In this document: positions 5,403 to 49,859 of the stretch, one piece after another
How positions within the stretch are numbered: position 1 is the first letter of the stretch
Layout of the letters: every line of letters begins with the position of its first letter
Source of the DNA: an uncultured Gammaproteobacteria bacterium
GTDB taxonomy: Bacteria > Patescibacteriota > Patescibacteriia > Patescibacteriales > UBA12465
DNA length: 64,000 nt
Reading direction: 5' to 3'
NCBI GenBank assembly: GCA_964639785.1
Contig: CAZXEE010000001.1
Location: 455,701-519,700, forward strand
Program-made: the position numbers and the translations under genes
Notes under the pieces: model-generated
Told to the model about the DNA's origin: nothing
The model's database searches: none
What the model saw: the letters and a program-made list of their open reading frames with translations, nothing else

Positions 5403-6440
5403 TTATTCTGGTTCTTTGGTTCCCTTCAGCTGTTCTATTTCTTTTTTTAATTCGATCATCTTGTTTTCCCGGTTAATCATGAACTTATTTAATTTTTCCA
5501 ACTCGTTGACCTTTTGGTTCAATTCATTGGTTCTCTGTTCAATCAGCGCTTCTTGATTGGTCTTTAGTTTCTCTAATTCAGCTGTCCTGGTCTTAACTTT
5601 TTCTTCCAGGTCCATATTGATAGTTTCCAGCTTATTTTTGGCAGCCTCTAAATCCTTGGTCTGTTCTTCGACTTGCTGCTTTAGTTTGCTGTTATAATTC
5701 TCTAATTCTACTCGCGATTTCTTTAGGTCCATAGCCATCATATTGAAAGCGTTGGCTAGGTTTCCGATTTCATCATCTGACCCGACTTTAATTTGGTAGT
5801 CGAAATTTAGGTTCTTGATTTCGTTAATACCTTTATCAATATCGATAATCGGTTTAATGACTATCAATCTGAAGACAAAAAATATCACTATTATGAAGAT
5901 GGTGAAGATTATGCCATAGTTTACCGCCTCTTTTCTTAAGGCTTGATTGATGGTTTCATTGATATCGTTTAAATCGAAGATAATCTGGATGGTTCCGACT
6001 ATCTTTCCGGAAATATGGATAGGGGCTACAGCTTTTAAGGTTTCATTGGAATTACTACCCGTTGTCTGGTTGACGAAAATATCTTCTTGGAAAGATCTGG
6101 TATTGTCTCCGTCTGGTTTCTGGTTCATCTGTTCCGGATCATTGGAGACATAAGTGATGAGTTCTCCGCCCTGGTTGATATTGACGTTGATATCGATGAT
6201 ATCGGAATCTAGCCAGATATTCTTCTGGATAAGGGCTAATAATCTTTCCTTGTCTTTTAATTCCTGTTCGTTCCTGATACTGGCTTCAATAGAGTAAGCG
6301 GTGGCTTTAGCCCTTTCGATGAAAAGGGGCATAACGTCTTTTTTCCGATTATAGATATTATTGACCGATATAAAAAGGTATAACCCCACGGAAAAGATTA
6401 TTATAATGCCGATTATTTTGAATGATAGTCTGCTTTTCAT
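5403..6440 (-). CDS. Membrane sensor: extracytoplasmic Cache-like domain, HAMP and long coiled coil, with no output domain
   Basis: Two TM segments flank a roughly 140-aa external domain. HAMP motif DDEIGNLANAFNMMAMDL. The C-terminal 110 aa are heptad-rich and end in LNKFMINRENKMIELKKEIEQLKG. Confidence 0.7.
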   Translation of the reverse strand: MKSRLSFKIIGIIIIFSVGLYLFISVNNIYNRKKDVMPLFIERAKATAYSIEASIRNEQELKDKERLLALIQKNIWLDSDIIDINVNINQGGELITYVSNDPEQMNQKPDGDNTRSFQEDIFVNQTTGSNSNETLKAVAPIHISGKIVGTIQIIFDLNDINETINQALRKEAVNYGIIFTIFIIVIFFVFRLIVIKPIIDIDKGINEIKNLNFDYQIKVGSDDEIGNLANAFNMMAMDLKKSRVELENYNSKLKQQVEEQTKDLEAAKNKLETINMDLEEKVKTRTAELEKLKTNQEALIEQRTNELNQKVNELEKLNKFMINRENKMIELKKEIEQLKGTKEPE

Positions 6441-6445
6441 ATTGA

Positions 6446-7267
6446 TTAGGATTTAGTCCACTTATCTTCGATGTTTTTCAGGACGCCTTCTTTTTTAATA
6501 TCTCGGATGATATTGTTAATAGCTTTTATTAACTCATTGTTTCCTAGCTTGGTGGCGATGCCATAATATTCTTGAGTGAATGGATCGCCGACAATCTTGA
6601 TTTCCGAGTCTTTTTTGATGGAGTCTACGGCTTGGATGTAGTCGACGATTATGGCATCGAATCTGCCTGCTTTTAGGTCATAGACGATTCCACCCTTTTC
6701 AGTTGAATTTCCCCAGGAATCATAAGTGACAATCTTTTCCGGCGTAGTTAATTTTTTGGCTTCGTCATTGCTGACTGTGCCGGTTTGGACGCCAATTTTT
6801 TTATCTTTCAAATCTTCTTTGGTTTTAATATCGCTATTATCAGCCTTGGCAACTATCACTTGTCCGCCATTGAAGTATGGAGCGCTGAACAGTATTCTCT
6901 CACTCCTTTCTTCGGTGATGGTGACGCTGGAGATGATTATATCGGCTTCTTGGTCATTAATTACAGAGAATAAGTCTTGCCATTCAAACGCTTTGATTTC
7001 TGCCTGTACTCCTAATCTTTTGGCGATTTCTTTCCCCAAATCAATATCTATTCCAACTGGTTGTCCATTAGAATCAAAGAATTCCATGACGCCATAATCA
7101 AAGTCGCTGCCGATTATTAATTTGCCTGATTTTTTAATTCTGTTTAGAGATTGGTCGCCAATATTTAAATTTTCAATCAGCTTCTTGTTCCACCAGAAAA
7201 AACCCAAAATAAATAATAAGACTAAGATCATGATCAGAGTCAAGATAATGATTTTTTTCTTATGCAT
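6446..7267 (-). CDS. Solute-binding protein, family 3 (amino-acid ABC-type periplasmic binding fold), membrane-anchored
   Basis: 273 aa with an N-terminal TM/signal anchor. LIIGSDFDYGVMEF...GIDIDLGKEIAKRLG...FDAIIVD are typical SBP_bac_3 features. Sits 5 nt upstream of the HAMP gene. Confidence 0.85.
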   Translation of the reverse strand: MHKKKIIILTLIMILVLLFILGFFWWNKKLIENLNIGDQSLNRIKKSGKLIIGSDFDYGVMEFFDSNGQPVGIDIDLGKEIAKRLGVQAEIKAFEWQDLFSVINDQEADIIISSVTITEERSERILFSAPYFNGGQVIVAKADNSDIKTKEDLKDKKIGVQTGTVSNDEAKKLTTPEKIVTYDSWGNSTEKGGIVYDLKAGRFDAIIVDYIQAVDSIKKDSEIKIVGDPFTQEYYGIATKLGNNELIKAINNIIRDIKKEGVLKNIEDKWTKS

Positions 7268-11271: not shown

Positions 11272-12852
11272 ATGGACATGTTTAGTTTGACTCCGATTTC
11301 TTTGATTTTATTTGTTAATTCTCTTTTCTTGGTCTTTTTGGGATTCTATCTTTGGCGCCGTGGCAGTTATTATTTCTTTTCATTGGTAATGTTTGCGGCG
11401 GCTTTCTGGGCTTTCAGCAGTTCGCTGGAAAATGGATTGGCTTTTATGTCTGATAAGATTTTTTGGGCCAAGATGACTTATGTCGGAATTTATTCGATTA
11501 CCCCTTTCTGGTTCTTGTTTGCTTTGCAGTATGCAAAATTCAAAAAAAGCTTCATTAGAAAGGTTAATTATTTCATTTGGCTGGTACCTCTAGTCCTTTT
11601 TCCGTTGACCATGACCAATGAATGGCATCATCTTTTTTGGACTAATATTGAGCCGATTGGTGGAAATGTCGCTAATGGTTTGATATATAGTCGTGGGTTA
11701 GGGGTTTATATTTCGATGGTTTATTCTTATGTACTTATCTTTGCTGGAGTATTGGTCTTAGCTATCTATGCTTTTCGAGCGACCAAGGTCCAAAGATCCC
11801 AAGTCTTTACCTTGTTCCTGGGTCTCTTATTTCCCTGGTTAATCAATTTTTTCTATTTATCTTATTCTCCTGAAGTTTCTCGAGGTGTCGATTTGACTCC
11901 GGTGGTCTTTGCTATCACTGGAATTTTTGCTGCACTCAGCATTTTCAAGTTTAAGCTCTCGGTCGTTATTCCAGCCGCTAAGGACCTAGTTTATCATAGC
12001 TTGGAGGTGGGGGTGATCGTAGTTAATAATGAAAACACGGTTGTCGATTTTAACCCTATGGCCGAGGAATTTCTGGGTAATAATTTAGCCAATGGTATGG
12101 TTGCGGACAAGGTTTTAATCACTAAAAACTTATCATTAAAATCGATTATTGATGCTGGCAAAAATTTATCAATTTCCATGGCAGAGTCTGATAAGTGCTT
12201 TGATATTCATTTTAATGATTTGGTTGATAAGTCGGGCCAATCGATCGGCAAGACTATCCTTTTTTATGATGTTACCATCCAGAAAAATGTGGAAAAAGAA
12301 TTGGAAAAGTCTAATCGTTTCTTTTCTGATTTGACTGATTTCTTGCCGGATGCGATGTTCGTTATCGATGTTAATAAGAAGATTGTCTTTTGGAATAAGG
12401 CTATGGAAAAACTGACCGGAGTTAAGGCTCAGGATATGGTGGGAAAGGGTGAATATGAATATGCCCTTCCTTTTTATGGTCAGAAACGCCCGATGTTAGT
12501 TGACCTAATTCTGGAAAATAATCCGGCGGCCACTGATTGGAAGTTATATGAAAATGAAAAGTTGGAGTGGTTTGGTGATCTGATTACTACTAAAGTGCTG
12601 AATAAATTTTTACGTAAGGACGGTATTTATCTCTGGGTCTTGGCTAAACCGATTTACGACAGTGGCGGTAAGATCATATATGTCGTCGAATCAATCCGGA
12701 ATGTCGATGATCTGCACAGGAACCAGGAAGAATTGAAAGCTAAGATTGAGGAGTTGTCGGCCATGAATAAGGTGATGGTCAATCGTGAGTTGAAGATGAT
12801 CAAGTTGAAAGAAGAATTAAGTCTGTTGAAATCTAAGTTAGCTTCTAAATAA
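11272..12852 (+). CDS. Sensor protein: N-terminal 7TM domain (HisKA_7TM-like), PAS and C-terminal coiled coil, with no kinase core
   Basis: About 230 aa of 7 TM helices (FLGFYLWRRG...FWAKMTYVGIY...). PAS segment FLPDAMFVIDVNKKIVFWNKAMEKLTGV. Ends in MNKVMVNRELKMIKLKEELSLLKSKLASK with no H-box or ATPase motifs. Confidence 0.75.
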   Translation: MDMFSLTPISLILFVNSLFLVFLGFYLWRRGSYYFFSLVMFAAAFWAFSSSLENGLAFMSDKIFWAKMTYVGIYSITPFWFLFALQYAKFKKSFIRKVNYFIWLVPLVLFPLTMTNEWHHLFWTNIEPIGGNVANGLIYSRGLGVYISMVYSYVLIFAGVLVLAIYAFRATKVQRSQVFTLFLGLLFPWLINFFYLSYSPEVSRGVDLTPVVFAITGIFAALSIFKFKLSVVIPAAKDLVYHSLEVGVIVVNNENTVVDFNPMAEEFLGNNLANGMVADKVLITKNLSLKSIIDAGKNLSISMAESDKCFDIHFNDLVDKSGQSIGKTILFYDVTIQKNVEKELEKSNRFFSDLTDFLPDAMFVIDVNKKIVFWNKAMEKLTGVKAQDMVGKGEYEYALPFYGQKRPMLVDLILENNPAATDWKLYENEKLEWFGDLITTKVLNKFLRKDGIYLWVLAKPIYDSGGKIIYVVESIRNVDDLHRNQEELKAKIEELSAMNKVMVNRELKMIKLKEELSLLKSKLASK

Positions 12853-27685: not shown

Positions 27686-29224
27686 TTAATTAGTCGGGGG
27701 GTTGCTTCCGCTCTGGAAGTTAGTTAATTGGCTGAAGCGGATAGTCGAGACGCCTTCGATATCTTGATAATACCAGTCATTACCGTCCATCGACCAGAGC
27801 AACCTGATGCCGTCATTGCCACCCAGGTCCCAATTAAGAGAGATGTCATAGGGCCGTCCGGATGAATCATCGGTCAAGTTAGCTTCAGAAAAATAATCAG
27901 AAAAAGTCTTAGTCCCGCCATTATTGGTATAATAGTAAATATTGATGTAATGGTTCATTCCGGAAGCCGAAAACCAAAAACCAAATAAACTTGGCTCCCC
28001 TATCTGCCAGACTGATGATGTAGTATCATGAATCGATGTCCCGGAAACTACCTGATAATATCTTTGGCTGGCTTCTACTTCGGCCGTTCCTTGTAATTCT
28101 CCCATTGCCATTCTGACACTCTCTACGTCAGCCATAAAGTCAGTCAATAATCCTTTAGCGGTGTTGGCATATGATTGAGCACTGGCAACGGTTGTAGCGG
28201 CGGCCATATTATCTATCTGCGTCTTGATTGGAGCCTCGGCAGAAATTAAATTGTTAATATCAGTAGCGACTGAGGCCGGCAGATTATATACAAACCCAAG
28301 AGAATAATTTAACGCTTCAACTTTGCTAATTTCAAGCTGGCCGGCCTCTACAGCTATAGAATCAATGTCGCCTAAAGTCACCATTCCATTTATAACATAG
28401 TTTAGTAACTCATTTGTTCTTTGATTCATACTGGTAACCTCTTGGAATGCAGCTTCAACTGTTTGGCAACTTGCTATTACGTTAGAAGCGGTATTGTTTT
28501 GTTTGATAACAACATAGCCATCAGCTTCTGGAGAGGCTGTCCATGACCAATCGATATAATAATCGCTGTTTGATCCGTTATCAACCATATCGATAGAGGA
28601 TGGATCAGACACGTAATATTGTCCGCCAATTTCTTTGTAGGCATAAACTTGGATGGCATGCTGGTTGTTATCCGCGCTATAACTACCGGAACCATAACCT
28701 ATTGTTCCAGCTGCATTGCTAGCCGACGAGAGATAATCAAAAGAAGTTTGGAAGCTCGAAGCATGGCTACTAGCGCTGCAATCAGATTCCAAAACGCCCC
28801 CTGGAGTCAAACACTTCAATCCAGCCGCTAATTGGCCGGTATTGCCGCCCAAACAATAAGAAAGGGTGTAAGAAGCACCATTTTCTGTTTGTTGGTAATA
28901 AAGAGCATTCTGGGTGTTGCTGCAACTACCATCAGCTGGGGTTGGAGCTGAAGGAATAATTTGCATATAAGTCGAAGTTGCTCCCGTAGAAGTGGAAAAT
29001 ATCTGTCCACTACCCCATTCTTCAGCAGTCGGGTATCGACCCTTGTCATTAAAGAATAATTCCAAGGCAGTCTGGACCTGCTTGGCGTCTCCCGCTCTTT
29101 TAGCATCACGGGCCTTAGATCTGGCATTTGATAAAGCTAAAATTGAAACAGTGGCCAAGATGCCAATAATAGCAATAACCACCAGAAGTTCAATGATAGT
29201 AAAGGCTTTTTTAGGCTTAATCAT
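27686..29224 (-). CDS. Large type IV pilin-like protein (prepilin N-terminal methylation motif plus roughly 370-aa C-terminal extension)
   Basis: MIKPKKA/FTIIELLVVIAIIGILA has the class III signal with Glu at +5, followed by the usual pilin helix and ab-loop (ARDAKRAGDAKQVQTALELF). It then continues to 512 aa. Confidence 0.8.
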   Translation of the reverse strand: MIKPKKAFTIIELLVVIAIIGILATVSILALSNARSKARDAKRAGDAKQVQTALELFFNDKGRYPTAEEWGSGQIFSTSTGATSTYMQIIPSAPTPADGSCSNTQNALYYQQTENGASYTLSYCLGGNTGQLAAGLKCLTPGGVLESDCSASSHASSFQTSFDYLSSASNAAGTIGYGSGSYSADNNQHAIQVYAYKEIGGQYYVSDPSSIDMVDNGSNSDYYIDWSWTASPEADGYVVIKQNNTASNVIASCQTVEAAFQEVTSMNQRTNELLNYVINGMVTLGDIDSIAVEAGQLEISKVEALNYSLGFVYNLPASVATDINNLISAEAPIKTQIDNMAAATTVASAQSYANTAKGLLTDFMADVESVRMAMGELQGTAEVEASQRYYQVVSGTSIHDTTSSVWQIGEPSLFGFWFSASGMNHYINIYYYTNNGGTKTFSDYFSEANLTDDSSGRPYDISLNWDLGGNDGIRLLWSMDGNDWYYQDIEGVSTIRFSQLTNFQSGSNPPTN

Positions 29225-30376: not shown

Positions 30377-33300
30377 TTACCTTACAATCTTTTCAATTTC
30401 GGCATTAAATTCTAAGAGCGCTTTTTGAACAGCATGGGTCAGCATTAATTCGCTACCGCCTTGCAGCGTGTAATAGCCGCTTCTTTTTTCCCCGGCTGTA
30501 TCAAAAACGGTTTTATCTAAAAATTCATTATCGTAATATTCTAAGTCATTATTATTGAACCTGGTTGTTTCCAGCATTGATGCAGCATTAGTATTATCGC
30601 CCTTAAAGACGCTGCTCTCTTTTCCCTCTTTGCTAATAGTACTGGTTCCCGGTTTTAAATAAAGATTGTTTACCTTAATTAACTTATCGGAAAGATCGAT
30701 GCTGAAGCTCTTGAATAATTCTTCTCTATTTATTTCGGTTGTTTTTATATATTCCTTTAGGCTTAGAGTCGGATCAATGTTTTCTATTATTGATTGGAAG
30801 CGTTTCTGGTTATATTCGCCGCCAAAATCAGACACATCCACCCAGACATTATTGTTATCAAGGTAACCGAACGTTTCTCTGTCTAAGAACGAGCTATTGT
30901 GATTTTTAACTGCCTTATCAACCTTGCTTAGTAATTCCAGCCACAAATTAGCTAGTTGGGCGGTTTTCTCGTCCTTGGATTTAATCATTTCCTGCAGGTT
31001 TTTAGCTTTAGTTTCATCTGATAACATCTCCAAGGCTTTTTCCGAGCCATCTGGGAAGCATTCCCTGAAAGCCTGGATAGCGATAGCGCCATTAAAAGCC
31101 GTCGTTACTGCTCTTTGCAAAGTTTCTTGTTTGTCGATAGATAAAGACCTTAATTCTACTGAATCGGTTGCTTCTTTGAAGAAAGCTATATTATTTGAAT
31201 CACCCCTTGATCGACCACGTAAAGAAACACCCCTTCCTCCATTTACTTTATGTCCGCTTTCTCCGGCTTGTACTCCGCCCCAAGAAGCGGCTATTATTGC
31301 ATTTTGCAAGAAGTTACTTTCCTGGTTAACTGAAATTCCTTTTTCACCGCCGATTGTCAGATGGAAACCGCGAGCTCCTTTTTGATAATTTTCAGACCGG
31401 TTAAAATTAAGATCGATATATTCTATATCATGTAGCAGCTTCATCTCCAAGAGCATGAGATAGGGATTGTCAGTTGGCCTAGTTGCTATTTCATGTACCG
31501 CATCTCTTCCTGAGCCTATTCTGGCTGCATTGCTTAATCTGGCAATATCATCCTTAAGGCTGGATTGAGAGGTTAATTCTTGGTATCCGGAAGCAGTTGA
31601 AGATGTTATTTCATACTCCATTCCGATAGAAGCATGCAAACCTTCAGGGATTTTATCATAGGAATTTTTTTCAACAACCTCCTGATATTTTCTTAGGTTA
31701 TAAGAAACCCTATCGATTACATCCTCGATTTTTCTGTCTGGCAGGTATTCTCTGGCAAAAAGCATGACAACAATGCTTCTGCCCTTATTCTCCTTTTTGT
31801 ATTTTTCTATAAAGTCAGATATTTCTTTAAGATCCTCAGTATATTCAGGTCTCGGATCATCAAGAAAACTTCCGAGCTGTTCAAGGTTGTTCCTATTGCT
31901 AAGCATGGAGCTGATTACATCTATAGAATTTAGAATCTGAGTTCTTACATTGTCTTTTGAAGTAACAGTCATTTCTTTATAGAAGTCCCTTGATTCTTCG
32001 ACGTTGAGAAGGTCGTGGTTTAACAAGGATAGACGAGCCTTCACTTTGTAGTCATTGTCCTCCATCCCGTTCAAGTGTTGTTTGACTTTGTTTATGCTTT
32101 CTTGATCATTAATCCTTTTTAGATAGTCAATAAAATAATCGATGTTGATTTTGTCTTTGAAAACATACTCCGTGATTTTGTCTTTAAAGTCAGAAGAATA
32201 ATTGATATCACCTTCAAATAAGGTTTTAAACATGCTGGAATGATAGTTTTTATCAAAAATCTCTTTTTCAATGAACTCCGGAGCGTAGGCGTAAAAACTT
32301 TCTAAACGTTCCCAGCGCGAAGACTTTCCTTTGCCAGGGTTAGCAAAAGAGCCACTAATTATTCTTTCTATATCTTCTTTCTTTGTTCCGAATTTACTTT
32401 CTTCCAGCGATTTCATAAAAGATATGATGTCCCCAGCCTCTTCCGCAAAACAATCTTCACTAACATTTTTCAAGCCAATGCGGAATAAATTTTCATCTAG
32501 ATAAAAGTCGCCATTTTGGCCGCCCGAAGACAGATAATTTTTCCAGAATCTTGGTGATAAGCCCCTAGTATTCATAGTGGCCGTACTGATTGTCTTTATT
32601 TCTTCGGGGGTTAAAGAGAATCCTTTTTTTATTATTTCATTCTTATCATTCAATTCGTCTGGAGATTTCCTTGAGGCAGCAGCTTCAAGGATCTCAGCAC
32701 CGTTAACCCCTGGCCAATTATTAAGATTTGAGAAGAAAGCATTTCTGATGTCATCATTCCCGAATATTATTCCTTCATTGAATAAGGTGTTAGCTGATGA
32801 AGAATCTAAATCCTTATCATTTAAAAGTTTTAAATAGATTCTCTCGAGTCCGGTTTGATTTTGCCGAATATTATCCAATTGTTTTTCATTTAAAGATTGA
32901 CAAATATAACTAAGATTGTGTCTACCATCAGAACTGCGGCCATTATTTTCTATTGAGTAATTTTTTTCGAAGTAATTTAAAAATTCCTCTCTTTGTTTCT
33001 CATTTAATTCATCAAAATCATGTATGAAATCCGGGTGGTCTAAGGCCCTTAATTCGAGGAGTTTTTGTTCTATTTTATGACGGGTTGCTTCATTACTTAT
33101 CTCGAGGTCTAAGCCGGAAAAATAGGCCCTGCTAATCATGTAATAATGATTGTTTTTATCGCCTGGCAATAATCGTTCAAATAATTTTGTTAAGTATTCC
33201 TCTCGATCATTGATAGGTTTATTATTCTTGTCCATGTTTGGAAAAAAATCACTGATTTTTTTAAAACAAGCCAATGTTAACGATGTAAGATCGTAATCAC

Positions 33301-35407
33301 TTTTCAAACTTAGAGCACCTTCCATTATTTTTCTGGCAAGATGAATCACCTCTTCTTCACTGAGAAAATCTTCTAAATTGCCATTACTAAAAAATATGTC
33401 ATTGGCAATATTTCTTGTTGCCATTTCAGCTTTTGCTGAATTACCATGCTCATCAACTTTGCTTATCAGATTTTCCGACATAGCATCAATCAACTCCTGT
33501 CTTTTGTCCGGAGATTGGTAGTCCTCCAAACTAAGGATTTTTCTAAGAGCTTTGCTGGCGTTTTCTACTGGACCATATTTAACAGTGGCTTCTAAAAGTA
33601 ATTTTGTGTCTTCAGGATTGATAGAATTATTTTGAAGCCCGTATAATATATCATCAACATCAACTTTACAGATAAAATATTTTATATATTTCTTATCTAT
33701 CCGTCCATCAAGCAATAAACTTCTTATCTCTTCAAAGTCTAAGCGGTTTTGTGAAGCGGCATAAGACTTTATTAAATCATCCAGATCATCACTCTGCCTT
33801 GAACCGTCAAGAACTTCATAAAAATAATGTCTTAAGTCGTTTTGATAGGCATTCTTGTGAAAATCAAGCTGCAATTGATGCCATAATAATGGTTCATTTT
33901 TTGCCCAAGCATAAGTTTTCTCATCTTGCTTGTCTAAAATCTTTAAAATTGAATCGGATCTTATATTGCTTAAAGAGAACACTTTTTCTTTTAGACTATC
34001 GGGCCAATTACAACGACTCATGAGTTCATTCAAGGCATGTATCTTTTCGATATCAAAACGATCTGAATCGCGAGATGCGAGAGAATCTAGCATTTGCCCC
34101 ACCATTTCAGAATTGATGCCATAATTTTCATTAGGATATTTATTGATCAAATTACTTATAAATATGAGTTCGTTGCCAGAGCTCATTCTTGAGGTTTCCT
34201 CCAGCATGACTTTAAAATTTTCATCTGAAATCTTCTGACCAGATAACTCATCTTCTTTAATGGATATGATGTGGCTTTTTACTGCGCCATTTTCGGCTGA
34301 CTTTAGAAATGGTCTGAGATCTTTTTTTTCAAGAGGTATAGCATCTAGCAACCAATTCCAGTCTTCACTTAGATAAGAATAGCGTCCCCATTGTTTGTTT
34401 AAAACCTCAAGCATTTCTTTGGTTTCATTTTCCGAACAATTAGATAAACGATTTATCAAAAGAGGAAAAATACCCTTAAAATTATAGTCGGGGCTTCCCT
34501 TCAAGTCATTCAGCCAAAGATTAAAAACAAAATCAACCCTTCGGCTATCGGATAATAATTCATCGGGATTTTTTGAGACAGTATCTAATAAAAGGCTTTT
34601 TATCTCGTTGGGTAATTTTTTGGAATTCGGGAATTGAGAAATTATTGAATCTAATCTGGAAAATATTTTTCCGGAAGAATCTTTTTCAAATTGTTCCTTG
34701 GATAAACGCGACAAAGCCTTCAGAGAGACAAAATCGCTCTCGGATTCTACATATTTTTTTAGTTTTTCTTCTCTTTCTCCAGAATCACTCCAAGTATTTG
34801 GTATGATTTTATTTAAATATTCTTCCAGACCTTTTTTTGCGCTTCCATTTAAATCGTCTTTGCTTAATAATTTAGGCCAAATATTAAGAATCTCCTCGGT
34901 TTTTTCCGGAAAACGTTCGATAATTACTTCCAAGGCTCGATTAGCGTTGGAAATCGCATCGTCGGCCTTTGAGGAGCTTCCCCAAAATTCTGAGCTTAAT
35001 GTCTTTAAAAATCGGTCATAATCCTCGGCCTTAGACAGGTTATTTTTAGCATTAAGCTCGGTGCATATCCTTTTTCCTCTTTTTTCTACATAATTATCCC
35101 GAAGCCTAACTGTTAATTTATTAGAATTGAAGATTTCCACTACCTTTGATGATATTTCTTTTAGCTTTTCTTCGCCCGCTTTCCTTAATTCCAAAATTGA
35201 TTCTCGCAAGCTGGAATTATTGGTCTTGGAAAACTCTTCAACCATTTGATTTTCTAAATCACCCTGAAGATCAAGATCTTTAAGGTAAGAAGAACTTATC
35301 TCCTCTTCTGTCTTATTATTATCTGCATTATCATTAAATTTTTCCTCTTTCGGATCTTCTGGTTTGCCATTCTTTCTTAAGTTTTCGAAATTAAAATTAT
35401 TTTCCAT
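30377..35407 (-). CDS. Giant 1,676-aa protein: helical-repeat N-terminal 1,250 aa plus a putative glutamine-synthetase-like amidoligase core
   Basis: Uninterrupted 5-kb ORF with no signal peptide or TM. Residues about 1256-1450 carry IGMEYE (ExE), AVHEIATRP, RGFHLTIGG and SVELRSLS (ExR) in the order found in carboxylate-amine ligases. Confidence 0.85.
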   Translation of the reverse strand: MENNFNFENLRKNGKPEDPKEEKFNDNADNNKTEEEISSSYLKDLDLQGDLENQMVEEFSKTNNSSLRESILELRKAGEEKLKEISSKVVEIFNSNKLTVRLRDNYVEKRGKRICTELNAKNNLSKAEDYDRFLKTLSSEFWGSSSKADDAISNANRALEVIIERFPEKTEEILNIWPKLLSKDDLNGSAKKGLEEYLNKIIPNTWSDSGEREEKLKKYVESESDFVSLKALSRLSKEQFEKDSSGKIFSRLDSIISQFPNSKKLPNEIKSLLLDTVSKNPDELLSDSRRVDFVFNLWLNDLKGSPDYNFKGIFPLLINRLSNCSENETKEMLEVLNKQWGRYSYLSEDWNWLLDAIPLEKKDLRPFLKSAENGAVKSHIISIKEDELSGQKISDENFKVMLEETSRMSSGNELIFISNLINKYPNENYGINSEMVGQMLDSLASRDSDRFDIEKIHALNELMSRCNWPDSLKEKVFSLSNIRSDSILKILDKQDEKTYAWAKNEPLLWHQLQLDFHKNAYQNDLRHYFYEVLDGSRQSDDLDDLIKSYAASQNRLDFEEIRSLLLDGRIDKKYIKYFICKVDVDDILYGLQNNSINPEDTKLLLEATVKYGPVENASKALRKILSLEDYQSPDKRQELIDAMSENLISKVDEHGNSAKAEMATRNIANDIFFSNGNLEDFLSEEEVIHLARKIMEGALSLKSDYDLTSLTLACFKKISDFFPNMDKNNKPINDREEYLTKLFERLLPGDKNNHYYMISRAYFSGLDLEISNEATRHKIEQKLLELRALDHPDFIHDFDELNEKQREEFLNYFEKNYSIENNGRSSDGRHNLSYICQSLNEKQLDNIRQNQTGLERIYLKLLNDKDLDSSSANTLFNEGIIFGNDDIRNAFFSNLNNWPGVNGAEILEAAASRKSPDELNDKNEIIKKGFSLTPEEIKTISTATMNTRGLSPRFWKNYLSSGGQNGDFYLDENLFRIGLKNVSEDCFAEEAGDIISFMKSLEESKFGTKKEDIERIISGSFANPGKGKSSRWERLESFYAYAPEFIEKEIFDKNYHSSMFKTLFEGDINYSSDFKDKITEYVFKDKINIDYFIDYLKRINDQESINKVKQHLNGMEDNDYKVKARLSLLNHDLLNVEESRDFYKEMTVTSKDNVRTQILNSIDVISSMLSNRNNLEQLGSFLDDPRPEYTEDLKEISDFIEKYKKENKGRSIVVMLFAREYLPDRKIEDVIDRVSYNLRKYQEVVEKNSYDKIPEGLHASIGMEYEITSSTASGYQELTSQSSLKDDIARLSNAARIGSGRDAVHEIATRPTDNPYLMLLEMKLLHDIEYIDLNFNRSENYQKGARGFHLTIGGEKGISVNQESNFLQNAIIAASWGGVQAGESGHKVNGGRGVSLRGRSRGDSNNIAFFKEATDSVELRSLSIDKQETLQRAVTTAFNGAIAIQAFRECFPDGSEKALEMLSDETKAKNLQEMIKSKDEKTAQLANLWLELLSKVDKAVKNHNSSFLDRETFGYLDNNNVWVDVSDFGGEYNQKRFQSIIENIDPTLSLKEYIKTTEINREELFKSFSIDLSDKLIKVNNLYLKPGTSTISKEGKESSVFKGDNTNAASMLETTRFNNNDLEYYDNEFLDKTVFDTAGEKRSGYYTLQGGSELMLTHAVQKALLEFNAEIEKIVR

Positions 35408-49184: not shown

Positions 49185-49859
49185 ATGCGCATTCTTCTAA
49201 TCGAGGATGAAAAAGATATTGCTGAATTCCTCAAAACTAGCTTAGAAATGGAATTTTATACTGTAGATATGGCCCATGACGGCGAACAAGGCTCTTTTTT
49301 GGCCAGAACTAACGAATATGACCTGATTATCTGCGATTATATCTTACCTAAACAGAACGGCCCGGAAGTAATAGCGGAAATCAGACAAGAAAACAAACAC
49401 GTACCAATAATCATTTTATCGGTAAAATCAGAAATTGACTCTAAAATTGAGCTTTTTAACCTGGGTGTTGATGATTATCTGACCAAACCTTTCCTTTTTG
49501 AAGAGCTTTTAGCCCATATTAAGGCTGTTCTCCGCCGCCCCTTAAAGCGAGAAGATCAAATATTGCGAATTGATGACTTAATGGTCGACACCGACAAGCA
49601 TCTGGTTAAACGAGGCCGCCAAGCCATCACCCTGACCAGAAAGGAATTATCATTATTAGAATACCTCCTGAAGAATCGCAGCCGCGTTATCAGTCGGGTG
49701 ACCATCATGGAGCATGTCTGGGATGCCAATGCTGATCCTTTCTCTAATACCATCGAATCTCATATAACCAATCTGAGACGGAAAATAAATTTGCCGGGCA
49801 AAAAAGAATTAATCCATACCATCTCCGGCCGAGGCTATAAAATTGACTTGAAGAAATAA
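49185..49859 (+). CDS. OmpR/PhoB-family response regulator (receiver plus winged helix)
   Basis: Acidic pocket EDE, phospho-acceptor context DLIICDYILP, KPF, and C-terminal LTRKELSLLEYLL...RGYK. Confidence 0.9.
   Translation: MRILLIEDEKDIAEFLKTSLEMEFYTVDMAHDGEQGSFLARTNEYDLIICDYILPKQNGPEVIAEIRQENKHVPIIILSVKSEIDSKIELFNLGVDDYLTKPFLFEELLAHIKAVLRRPLKREDQILRIDDLMVDTDKHLVKRGRQAITLTRKELSLLEYLLKNRSRVISRVTIMEHVWDANADPFSNTIESHITNLRRKINLPGKKELIHTISGRGYKIDLKK

Follow-up and report, generated by a model that had tools for sequence, protein, structure and literature searches.

To what do sensor proteins signal when they carry no output domain of their own? The question is raised by two genes in a 64,000-nucleotide (nt) stretch of contig CAZXEE010000001.1 (assembly GCA_964639785.1, positions 455,701 to 519,700), hereafter the window: one encodes a 526-amino-acid (aa) protein with a seven-transmembrane (7TM) module (protein 1), the other a 345-aa HAMP protein (protein 2), and both end in the same conserved helix, which we term tail A. 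Our answer, to which we assign a rough probability of 0.55, is that tail A is a helix by which split sensor kinases couple or dock, joining input-only sensors to separately encoded histidine kinases, likely via a second conserved helix in the kinase (motif B).

Protein 1 is laid out as follows (positions are those of the window; AF2, AlphaFold2; ORF, open reading frame):

11272..12852, + strand: gene for an input-only sensor of 526 aa (ORF; Pfam; AF2 model; ten orthologues with the same architecture)
11293..11961, + strand: HisKA_7TM membrane module, aa 8-230 (Pfam PF16927; AF2 helices 8-230)
12007..12270, + strand: first, divergent PAS-like fold, aa 246-333 (beta-sheet domain in the AF2 model; Foldseek)
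12319..12705, + strand: second PAS domain, aa 350-478 (Pfam PAS/PAS_9/PAS_8; AF2 strands 361-477)
12706..12846, + strand: C-terminal helix, aa 479-525 (one continuous 47-residue helix in the AF2 model)
12730..12831, + strand: conserved tail motif, aa 487-520 (translation: ELKAKIEELSAMNKVMVNRELKMIKLKEELSLLK)

The N-terminal 7TM module is recognized by Pfam as HisKA_7TM at residues 13-234 (E = 1.8e-49), in agreement with an initial annotation of this locus, which had also placed both ORFs correctly. That annotation went on to describe a single PAS domain followed by a short coiled coil. The AF2 model of protein 1, for which the ten orthologues served as input (mean predicted local distance difference test [pLDDT] 77.7), instead arranges the chain as seven transmembrane (TM) helices, a PAS-like fold (246-333), a linker helix, a PAS fold (361-477), and a terminal helix (479-525), and Foldseek aligns the cytoplasmic part with tandem PAS-PAS structures, such as those of DosP and FixL, over ~270 columns. 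Protein 1 therefore has two PAS folds, not one, in the order 7TM, PAS, PAS, terminal helix; the C-terminal helical element stands, but as a single long helix.

Protein 2, on the opposite strand, has an unrelated sensory part:

5403..6440, - strand: gene for an input-only sensor of 345 aa (ORF; Pfam; AF2 model; Foldseek)
5973..6269, - strand: extracytoplasmic sCache/PDC-like sensor domain, aa 58-156 (alpha/beta domain in the AF2 model; Foldseek matches to WalK, CitA, and Cache ligand-binding domains)
5721..5864, - strand: HAMP domain, aa 193-240 (Pfam PF00672, E = 2.1e-7)
5424..5525, - strand: conserved tail motif, aa 306-339 (translation: ELNQKVNELEKLNKFMINRENKMIELKKEIEQLK)

Here, a TM segment, the sCache-like domain, a second TM segment, and HAMP lead into a long stalk that ends in the tail. 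In the AF2 model, the second TM helix runs directly into HAMP, the arrangement that defines HAMP transmembrane receptors, and an unbroken helix of 117 residues (aa 224-340; mean pLDDT 85.3) ends the protein and holds its tail. Pfam matches to sCache_3_2 and ArlS_N are weak, and the top Foldseek match is a WalK model, aligned over its N-terminal half (E = 1.2e-13). Pfam scans gave no match at E ≤ 1 to HisKA or HATPase_c in either protein, bearing out the earlier statement that DHp and ATPase domains are missing, and none to MCPsignal (PF00015) in protein 2. The label "methyl-accepting chemotaxis protein," which JGI attaches to some orthologues of protein 2, was rejected: PF00015 is absent, and the 117-residue helix is modeled as straight rather than as a hairpin.

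What the two proteins have in common is confined to their ends. BLASTP aligns their last 34 residues without gaps (19/34 identical; composition-adjusted E = 9e-8), and an independent recount of the 30-residue peptides encoded at nt 12742-12831 and 5424-5513 gives 17/30 identities; the initial annotation had reported both the gapless alignment and this count, and its view of the motif as the terminal element of two otherwise unrelated input modules holds. In both proteins, the stop codon lies 6 residues past the motif. A profile built from nine tails, when run against the 355 window ORFs of at least 50 aa, recovers proteins 1 and 2 (E = 1.7e-21 and 1.4e-19 for the two) and nothing else, even at E ≤ 10. 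At identities of 29 to 89% to protein 1 and of 29 to 86% to protein 2, orthologues still terminate in the tail; most of them belong to "Candidatus Falkowbacteria" and other, related bacteria of the candidate phyla radiation (CPR). Neither protein has a segment better conserved than the tail core (mean identity among orthologues of 0.77, versus 0.48-0.58 elsewhere, in protein 1 and of 0.75, versus 0.45-0.52, in protein 2).

The consensus of tail A, a helix of ~35 to 45 residues, is ELxxK[VI]xELExxNxxM[VI][GND]RE[L][KR]M[IV]ELK[KE]E[IV]xxLK. Among 209 tail instances, R21, E22, and K29 are invariant, N15, M18, M25, L28, and L36 are conserved in 91 to 97%, and position 24 is K or R in 97%; the motif contains no histidine, and its Asn sits inside the hydrophobic heptad pattern. 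The tail ends no more than 10 residues from the end of the protein in 177 of these instances and no more than 30 residues from it in 193. Scans of the Pfam and NCBIfam libraries returned no model that covers the tail, and profile searches of the PDB returned no chain matching the NxxMxxRE core or the whole motif: only designed coiled-coil peptides match, weakly (E ≥ 0.01), the generic IELKKEIxxLK half. On these profiles and counts, tail A is a specific, constrained motif and not a generic heptad pattern, the objection that the initial annotation had foreseen. Two other identities for the tail were considered and rejected. The PF28231 label on three proteins (P0121, P0122, and P0139) is a faint STB2_C coiled-coil match that is irrelevant to the tail. 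A degenerate DHp helix 1, in which His has become Arg ("NRELKM" versus "SHELRT"), was discarded because hhalign finds no similarity between tail and DHp: the 209 tails and a DHp alignment of 50 kinases share one aligned column, at a probability of 0.2%.

The scan for further carriers that had been proposed for this locus extends the tail well beyond it. Against 1.84 billion protein cluster representatives, the nine-tail profile matches 8,675 (cutoff E ≤ 1e-3). For gene context, loci were collected with a degenerate DNA pattern for a 14-residue core, with one genome per GTDB species, yielding at least 119 loci; the carrier counts given below (out of 134, 117, or 113) are among the matches listed from these loci. 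Many CPR classes are represented, as are, outside the CPR, Bacteroidota, Ignavibacteria, Omnitrophota, Delongbacteria, Nitrospirota (Nitrospiraceae), Acidobacteriota, Cyanobacteria (Nostoc), Chloroflexota, Verrucomicrobia, Fibrobacteres, Elusimicrobia, and others. Of 117 instances from GTDB genomes, 114 have 6 to 33 residues between the end of a 15-residue core and the stop codon. No kinase core was found within the same ORF as the tail in any of the 134 carriers, and no tail A in any of 120 kinases from an unrelated list, contrary to the initial annotation, which likened the motif to linkers inside multi-PAS sensor kinases of other phyla.

In domain content, the carriers are sensors of many kinds. 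A Pfam census of 113 full-length carriers counts PAS in ~60, HAMP in 21, CHASE4 in 8, GAF in 8, dCache in 5, HisKA_7TM in 4, REC in 4, 5TMR-LYT in 3, PocR in 2, and CHASE in 2; CheB-CheR fusions make up another 2. Output families are absent from the 25 most frequent Pfam families of this set, and output domains are likewise absent from ten large non-CPR carriers (with REC, PAS, GAF, CHASE, PocR, or dCache domains). At the lower extreme, minimal carriers of 165 to 220 aa consist of PAS plus tail. An internal tail copy was found only where the protein has another copy at its end, and the low-complexity linkers that come after these internal copies suggest that double-tail proteins are fusions of two complete sensor-tail units. 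Both window proteins combine the profile match and the conserved positions with an extreme C-terminal motif and no recognized output domain and, by this makeup, belong to a large class of input-only sensors in which tail A is the sole C-terminal element. The class is apparently undescribed: in the libraries searched and in full-text literature searches for the tail and motif-B strings and related concepts, we found no curated family, solved structure, or paper describing the tail or its pairing with motif B.

The genes that accompany the carriers point to histidine kinases. For 41 of the 134 carriers, the nearest same-strand gene downstream that is not itself a carrier encodes a histidine kinase. 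Carrier and kinase genes are immediate neighbors in 39 pairs; they overlap in 19 of these and come within ~31 nt of each other in 36. When whole same-strand gene runs are considered (confined to an arbitrary 8-kb chunk per locus), a kinase accompanies 66/134 carriers. Often, a single kinase shares its run with two or three carriers (e.g., L001, L040, L073, and L116); kinases in CPR genomes average no more than ~1.1 per 100 genes (PMC10805038). The adjoining kinases are of two types, dCache-HAMP-PAS-HisKA-HATPase proteins of 780 to 820 aa and cytoplasmic PAS-HisKA-HATPase proteins of 400 to 600 aa, and one to three REC-only genes come after them. A distant homologue of protein 1 (P0022: 7TM, PAS, PAS, tail) is encoded 7 nt downstream of a PAS histidine kinase, and the pair closes a REC-T2SSE-T2SSF-pilin gene cluster. 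That carrier-kinase pairs are split genes or frameshift artifacts was rejected because the kinases start with TM or N-terminal regions of their own and solo carriers keep the same end.

Many of these kinases share the second conserved helix, motif B (consensus [DN]LExxxKA[IVM]LN[IV][LM]EDxxxEK), which sits at the kinase N-terminus or directly after HAMP and always ahead of the PAS-DHp core (as in L001, L009, L022, L043, L052, L085, and others); literature searches for its string yielded no description of it. Motif B is present in 33 of the 39 kinases directly downstream of carriers versus 11 of 26 other kinases of the same loci (Fisher p = 9e-4, a test that ignores phylogeny and uses a motif-B profile trained on same-locus kinases). 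In the unrelated list of 120 kinases, it occurs in 28, all close relatives of a 790-aa Falkowbacteria kinase, and in 0 of the 92 others. Five non-kinase ORFs with motif B were found, all adjoining carriers, and four of these are kinase-like genes that are cut by the locus edge or were not scored as kinases; the fifth is itself a carrier. The gene order tail then motif B recurs, besides CPR genomes, in Nostoc, Nitrospiraceae, Anaerolineales, Pyrinomonadaceae, and Ignavibacteria, sometimes with a CheR or NMT1-type binding protein gene between the two. In other Falkowbacteria (L085), a third carrier is convergent with a unit of REC, the 790-aa motif-B kinase, and REC, which lies beside T2SSE/F genes. 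The net charge is +2.0 for the tail core and -2.2 for motif B.

One protein holds both motifs: a 370-aa product of L108:4422-5534 (- strand), in which motif B spans aa 36-66, close to the N-terminus, and tail A forms the C-terminal end. This layout could make it an adaptor connecting carriers in series.

Under the split-kinase reading, the input modules would sense the signal, protein 1 through its 7TM module and two PAS folds and protein 2 through HAMP and its sCache-like domain, the latter probably loaded by a solute-binding protein encoded in the same operon. The signal would then shift the register or packing of the helix that leaves PAS or HAMP, the site at which fused kinases have their DHp linker, and the tail at the end of this helix would form a non-covalent coupling between the sensor and a separate histidine kinase, likely at motif B, immediately before the PAS-DHp-ATPase core. 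Because the coupling would be non-covalent, several sensor proteins could feed one kinase, which would phosphorylate the receiver-only response regulators that these gene runs also encode. The motif, its place at the C-terminus, the lack of output domains, and the gene linkage to motif-B kinases are direct observations; we infer both the physical docking of tail A with motif B and the identity of the kinase used by the window proteins; that kinase must lie outside the window, since a profile search found no kinase core in any window ORF.

Several observations weigh against this coupling. The charge complementarity of tail A and motif B, whose contact is putative, is modest. Kinase adjacency with motif B is frequent, not universal, applying to about a third to a half of the carriers: roughly half of those listed share no same-strand run with a kinase inside the 8-kb chunk, 6 of the 39 adjacent kinases have no motif B, and for some carriers CheR, hemerythrin, or an NMT1-type binding protein takes the place of the kinase downstream. 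Closer to the window, no kinase adjoins the two genes or their orthologues in the related contigs L120, L121, and L122, and a query with the 790-aa Falkowbacteria kinase gave no match that could be traced to the window's 546,729-bp contig (each cluster being represented by its longest contig alone). The suggestion in the initial annotation that both proteins dock onto one shared, separately encoded transmitter is strongly supported, by comparison, as regards a separate transmitter for the class, in which kinases directly follow or share the runs of many carriers, and less so for the window itself.

Among competing explanations, the one that survives best, though we consider it unlikely, is that the tail recruits a non-kinase partner (receiver-only regulators, CheR/CheB, or parts of a type-IV-pilus-like machine), such that the sensor acts as a scaffold or direct regulator and the kinase is linked indirectly. 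The REC-only proteins usually encoded in the same gene runs are candidates for such a partner, as is CheR, which comes directly after 10 listed carriers and forms part of the two CheB-CheR fusions in the census. Some tails are extended past the motif by GxPx[KR]Y, and CheR is present in the same locus for 13 of 34 carriers with this extension versus 1 of 100 without it (Fisher p = 3e-8; confounded by phylogeny). Carrier, kinase, and REC also stand at the end of a T2SSE-T2SSF-pilin cluster in 17 of the 119 listed loci. The CheR cases, however, all come from loci labeled non-CPR, with none found in loci labeled CPR; the window proteins have no extension; and a scan of the window found no CheR, T2SSE, or T2SSF gene (nor any LVIVD, FIST, or motif B). 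Moreover, the kinase is the most frequent and tightest neighbor, down to overlapping start and stop codons, and its own conserved helix tracks with adjacency to carriers.

The extended form of the tail, seen outside the CPR, reads ...ELKKE[IV]NxL[LC]xxxGxPx[KR]Y(xxxFE) and occurs in L016, L051, L057, L059, L062, L063, L090, L096, L109, and L116; where CheR is in the same locus, as it often is, it is either free or present as a CheB-CheR fusion in the carrier itself. As for the pilus-like clusters, carrier, kinase, and REC genes lie beside or inside them (L005, L031, L044, L064, L070, L073, L080, and L110, among others, and L123:1360-12022), typically in the order T2SSE, T2SSF, pilin, LVIVD-repeat protein, pilin, 141-aa protein, pilin, carrier, kinase, REC. 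This arrangement suggests that the tail-kinase-REC system regulates a pilus-like machine in CPR bacteria.

Somewhat less probable again is that the tail merely caps the homodimers of PAS and HAMP sensors, with output passing through other surfaces (membrane or periplasmic) or with the proteins acting as decoys. The IELKKEIxxLK half does resemble designed dimeric coiled coils, in each AF2 model the helix is plain and unbroken, and the Asn within the heptad pattern fits as well, a buried Asn being typical of parallel dimeric coiled coils. But a dimerization cap needs neither near-invariant N, M, R, E, K, and M residues across phyla nor the highest conservation in the protein, and it leaves unexplained both the strict absence of a following domain and the association with motif-B kinases.

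We give still less credence to a pairing of carriers with each other through the shared tail (for example, of the 7TM-PAS protein with the HAMP protein), by which signals would be integrated or sequestered before, or instead of, contact with a kinase. Different sensors do share the tail in one genome, with two in the window and up to three per gene run, and some proteins hold two tail copies; nevertheless, this explanation has no direct support, mixed pairs alone give no output, so a downstream partner would still be required, and the double-tail proteins look like fused sensor-tail units, as described above. Finally, the notion that the two genes are truncated remnants of sensor kinases whose ends agree by chance or through coiled-coil bias, which full-length 7TM-PAS-HisKA-HATPase relatives (P0059, P0064, P0090, P0119, and P0120, at 24 to 34% identity) and the likeness of the HAMP protein to the N-terminal half of WalK might invite, is contradicted, because orthologues down to 29% identity end in the same way and the tail has no DHp similarity, and also by the stronger constraint on the tail than on the sensor domains and by the thousands of unrelated carriers that share the ending.

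The split-kinase arrangement has partial counterparts among known systems. H-NOX proteins with an operon-linked kinase, LuxP-LuxQ, and YycH/YycI-WalK are stand-alone sensors that regulate a separate histidine kinase by protein contact; as with the carriers, input and kinase are on separate polypeptides, usually in one operon, and inputs can converge, but the interfaces are globular and family specific, whereas the carriers have one portable C-terminal helix and a matching helix in the kinase. Short PAS/LOV proteins such as PpSB1-LOV and RsLOV resemble the minimal carriers in consisting of a PAS core and a terminal helix (J-alpha) with no effector; we know of no conserved terminal motif that they have in common with HAMP, CHASE, and 7TM sensors, nor of any reported systematic linkage to kinases. 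The signaling helix (S-helix), reportedly described by Anantharaman, Balaji, and Aravind in 2006 as a connector of ~40 residues between input and output domains, is, like the tail, a parallel coiled coil that leaves PAS, HAMP, or GAF. It links to an output, however, whereas tail A is terminal, with nothing after it, and has a different signature (NxxMxxRExKMxELK), so that it connects no two domains. The S-helix also has a conserved central signature of the ERT type. RT-containing heptads (KTRTAEL and EQRTNEL) occur in the stalk of protein 2 just before the tail, and T occupies profile column 1 in ~40% of carriers; the tail core itself reads N-R-E.

Two further likenesses concern short terminal peptides. 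The docking domains of polyketide and non-ribosomal peptide synthases, like tail A and motif B, pair a short C-terminal helix with a matching N-terminal or internal helix of the next polypeptide, usually the product of an adjacent gene; they belong to a different biological system, and for tail A and motif B the pairing is one we infer. The NWETF pentapeptide, which tethers CheR/CheB to chemoreceptors, is, like the tail, a conserved peptide at the extreme C-terminus of a sensor. The carriers nonetheless differ from chemoreceptors in lacking MCPsignal, the window proteins have no GxPx[KR]Y extension, and no CheR was found in loci labeled CPR. By their defining features, the window proteins are not histidine kinases, chemoreceptors, or S-helix connectors.

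The surroundings of the two genes bear on what they may sense. The gene of protein 1 sits between those of a YgjP-like peptidase and an FAD-dependent protein, that of protein 2 lies upstream of an NMO-family gene, and both arrangements are kept in related contigs. Next to protein 2 is the following gene:

6446..7267, - strand: membrane-anchored SBP_bac_3 solute-binding protein (Pfam SBP_bac_3, E = 1.2e-35)

This gene encodes an N-terminal membrane anchor and lies 5 nt upstream of the gene of protein 2. Since the adjacency of solute-binding protein and HAMP-tail protein is conserved, in the same gene order, in the related contigs L120 and L121, the solute-binding protein is likely the ligand-delivering partner, or co-sensor, of the sCache-like domain. 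HAMP-type carriers elsewhere have another small neighbor: in four cases (L007, L031, L064, and L121:19829-20239), the gene directly downstream encodes a hemerythrin-domain protein of ~140 aa, which, judging from its domain, may be a redox- or oxygen-sensing partner.

Elsewhere in the window, only one other two-component element is present:

49185..49859, + strand: orphan OmpR-type response regulator (Pfam Response_reg and Trans_reg_C)

Two further ORFs are unusual. One, at 30377-35407 (- strand), encodes 1,676 aa with no Pfam match at E ≤ 1e-4, in a region whose G+C fraction is 0.34-0.35 versus ~0.40 elsewhere. The other, at 27686-29224 (- strand), encodes a 512-aa protein with a prepilin-type N_methyl motif and no other recognized domain, unusually long for a pilin-like protein.

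Sensor-domain proteins with no output are common in genome censuses and usually go unexplained, notably in small-genome CPR bacteria with few kinases. Coupling through tail A, if true, would offer a testable wiring rule by which several inputs reach one kinase, a sequence handle with which to annotate output-less sensor proteins, and a small, naturally occurring docking pair with which two-component systems could be rewired. A bolder and, in our estimate, doubtful extension is that tail A is the plug and motif B the socket of a portable code by which many independently evolving sensors attach non-covalently to one histidine kinase, yielding split, multi-input kinases in CPR bacteria and many other phyla, with the extended tail also tethering CheR/CheB outside the CPR; in that event, the proteins with GxPx[KR]Y tails would constitute a new class of methyl-accepting, adapting sensors outside chemotaxis. 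For the CPR bacteria themselves, split-kinase coupling would link sensing to type-IV-pilus-like clusters, whose regulation in these organisms is largely unknown.

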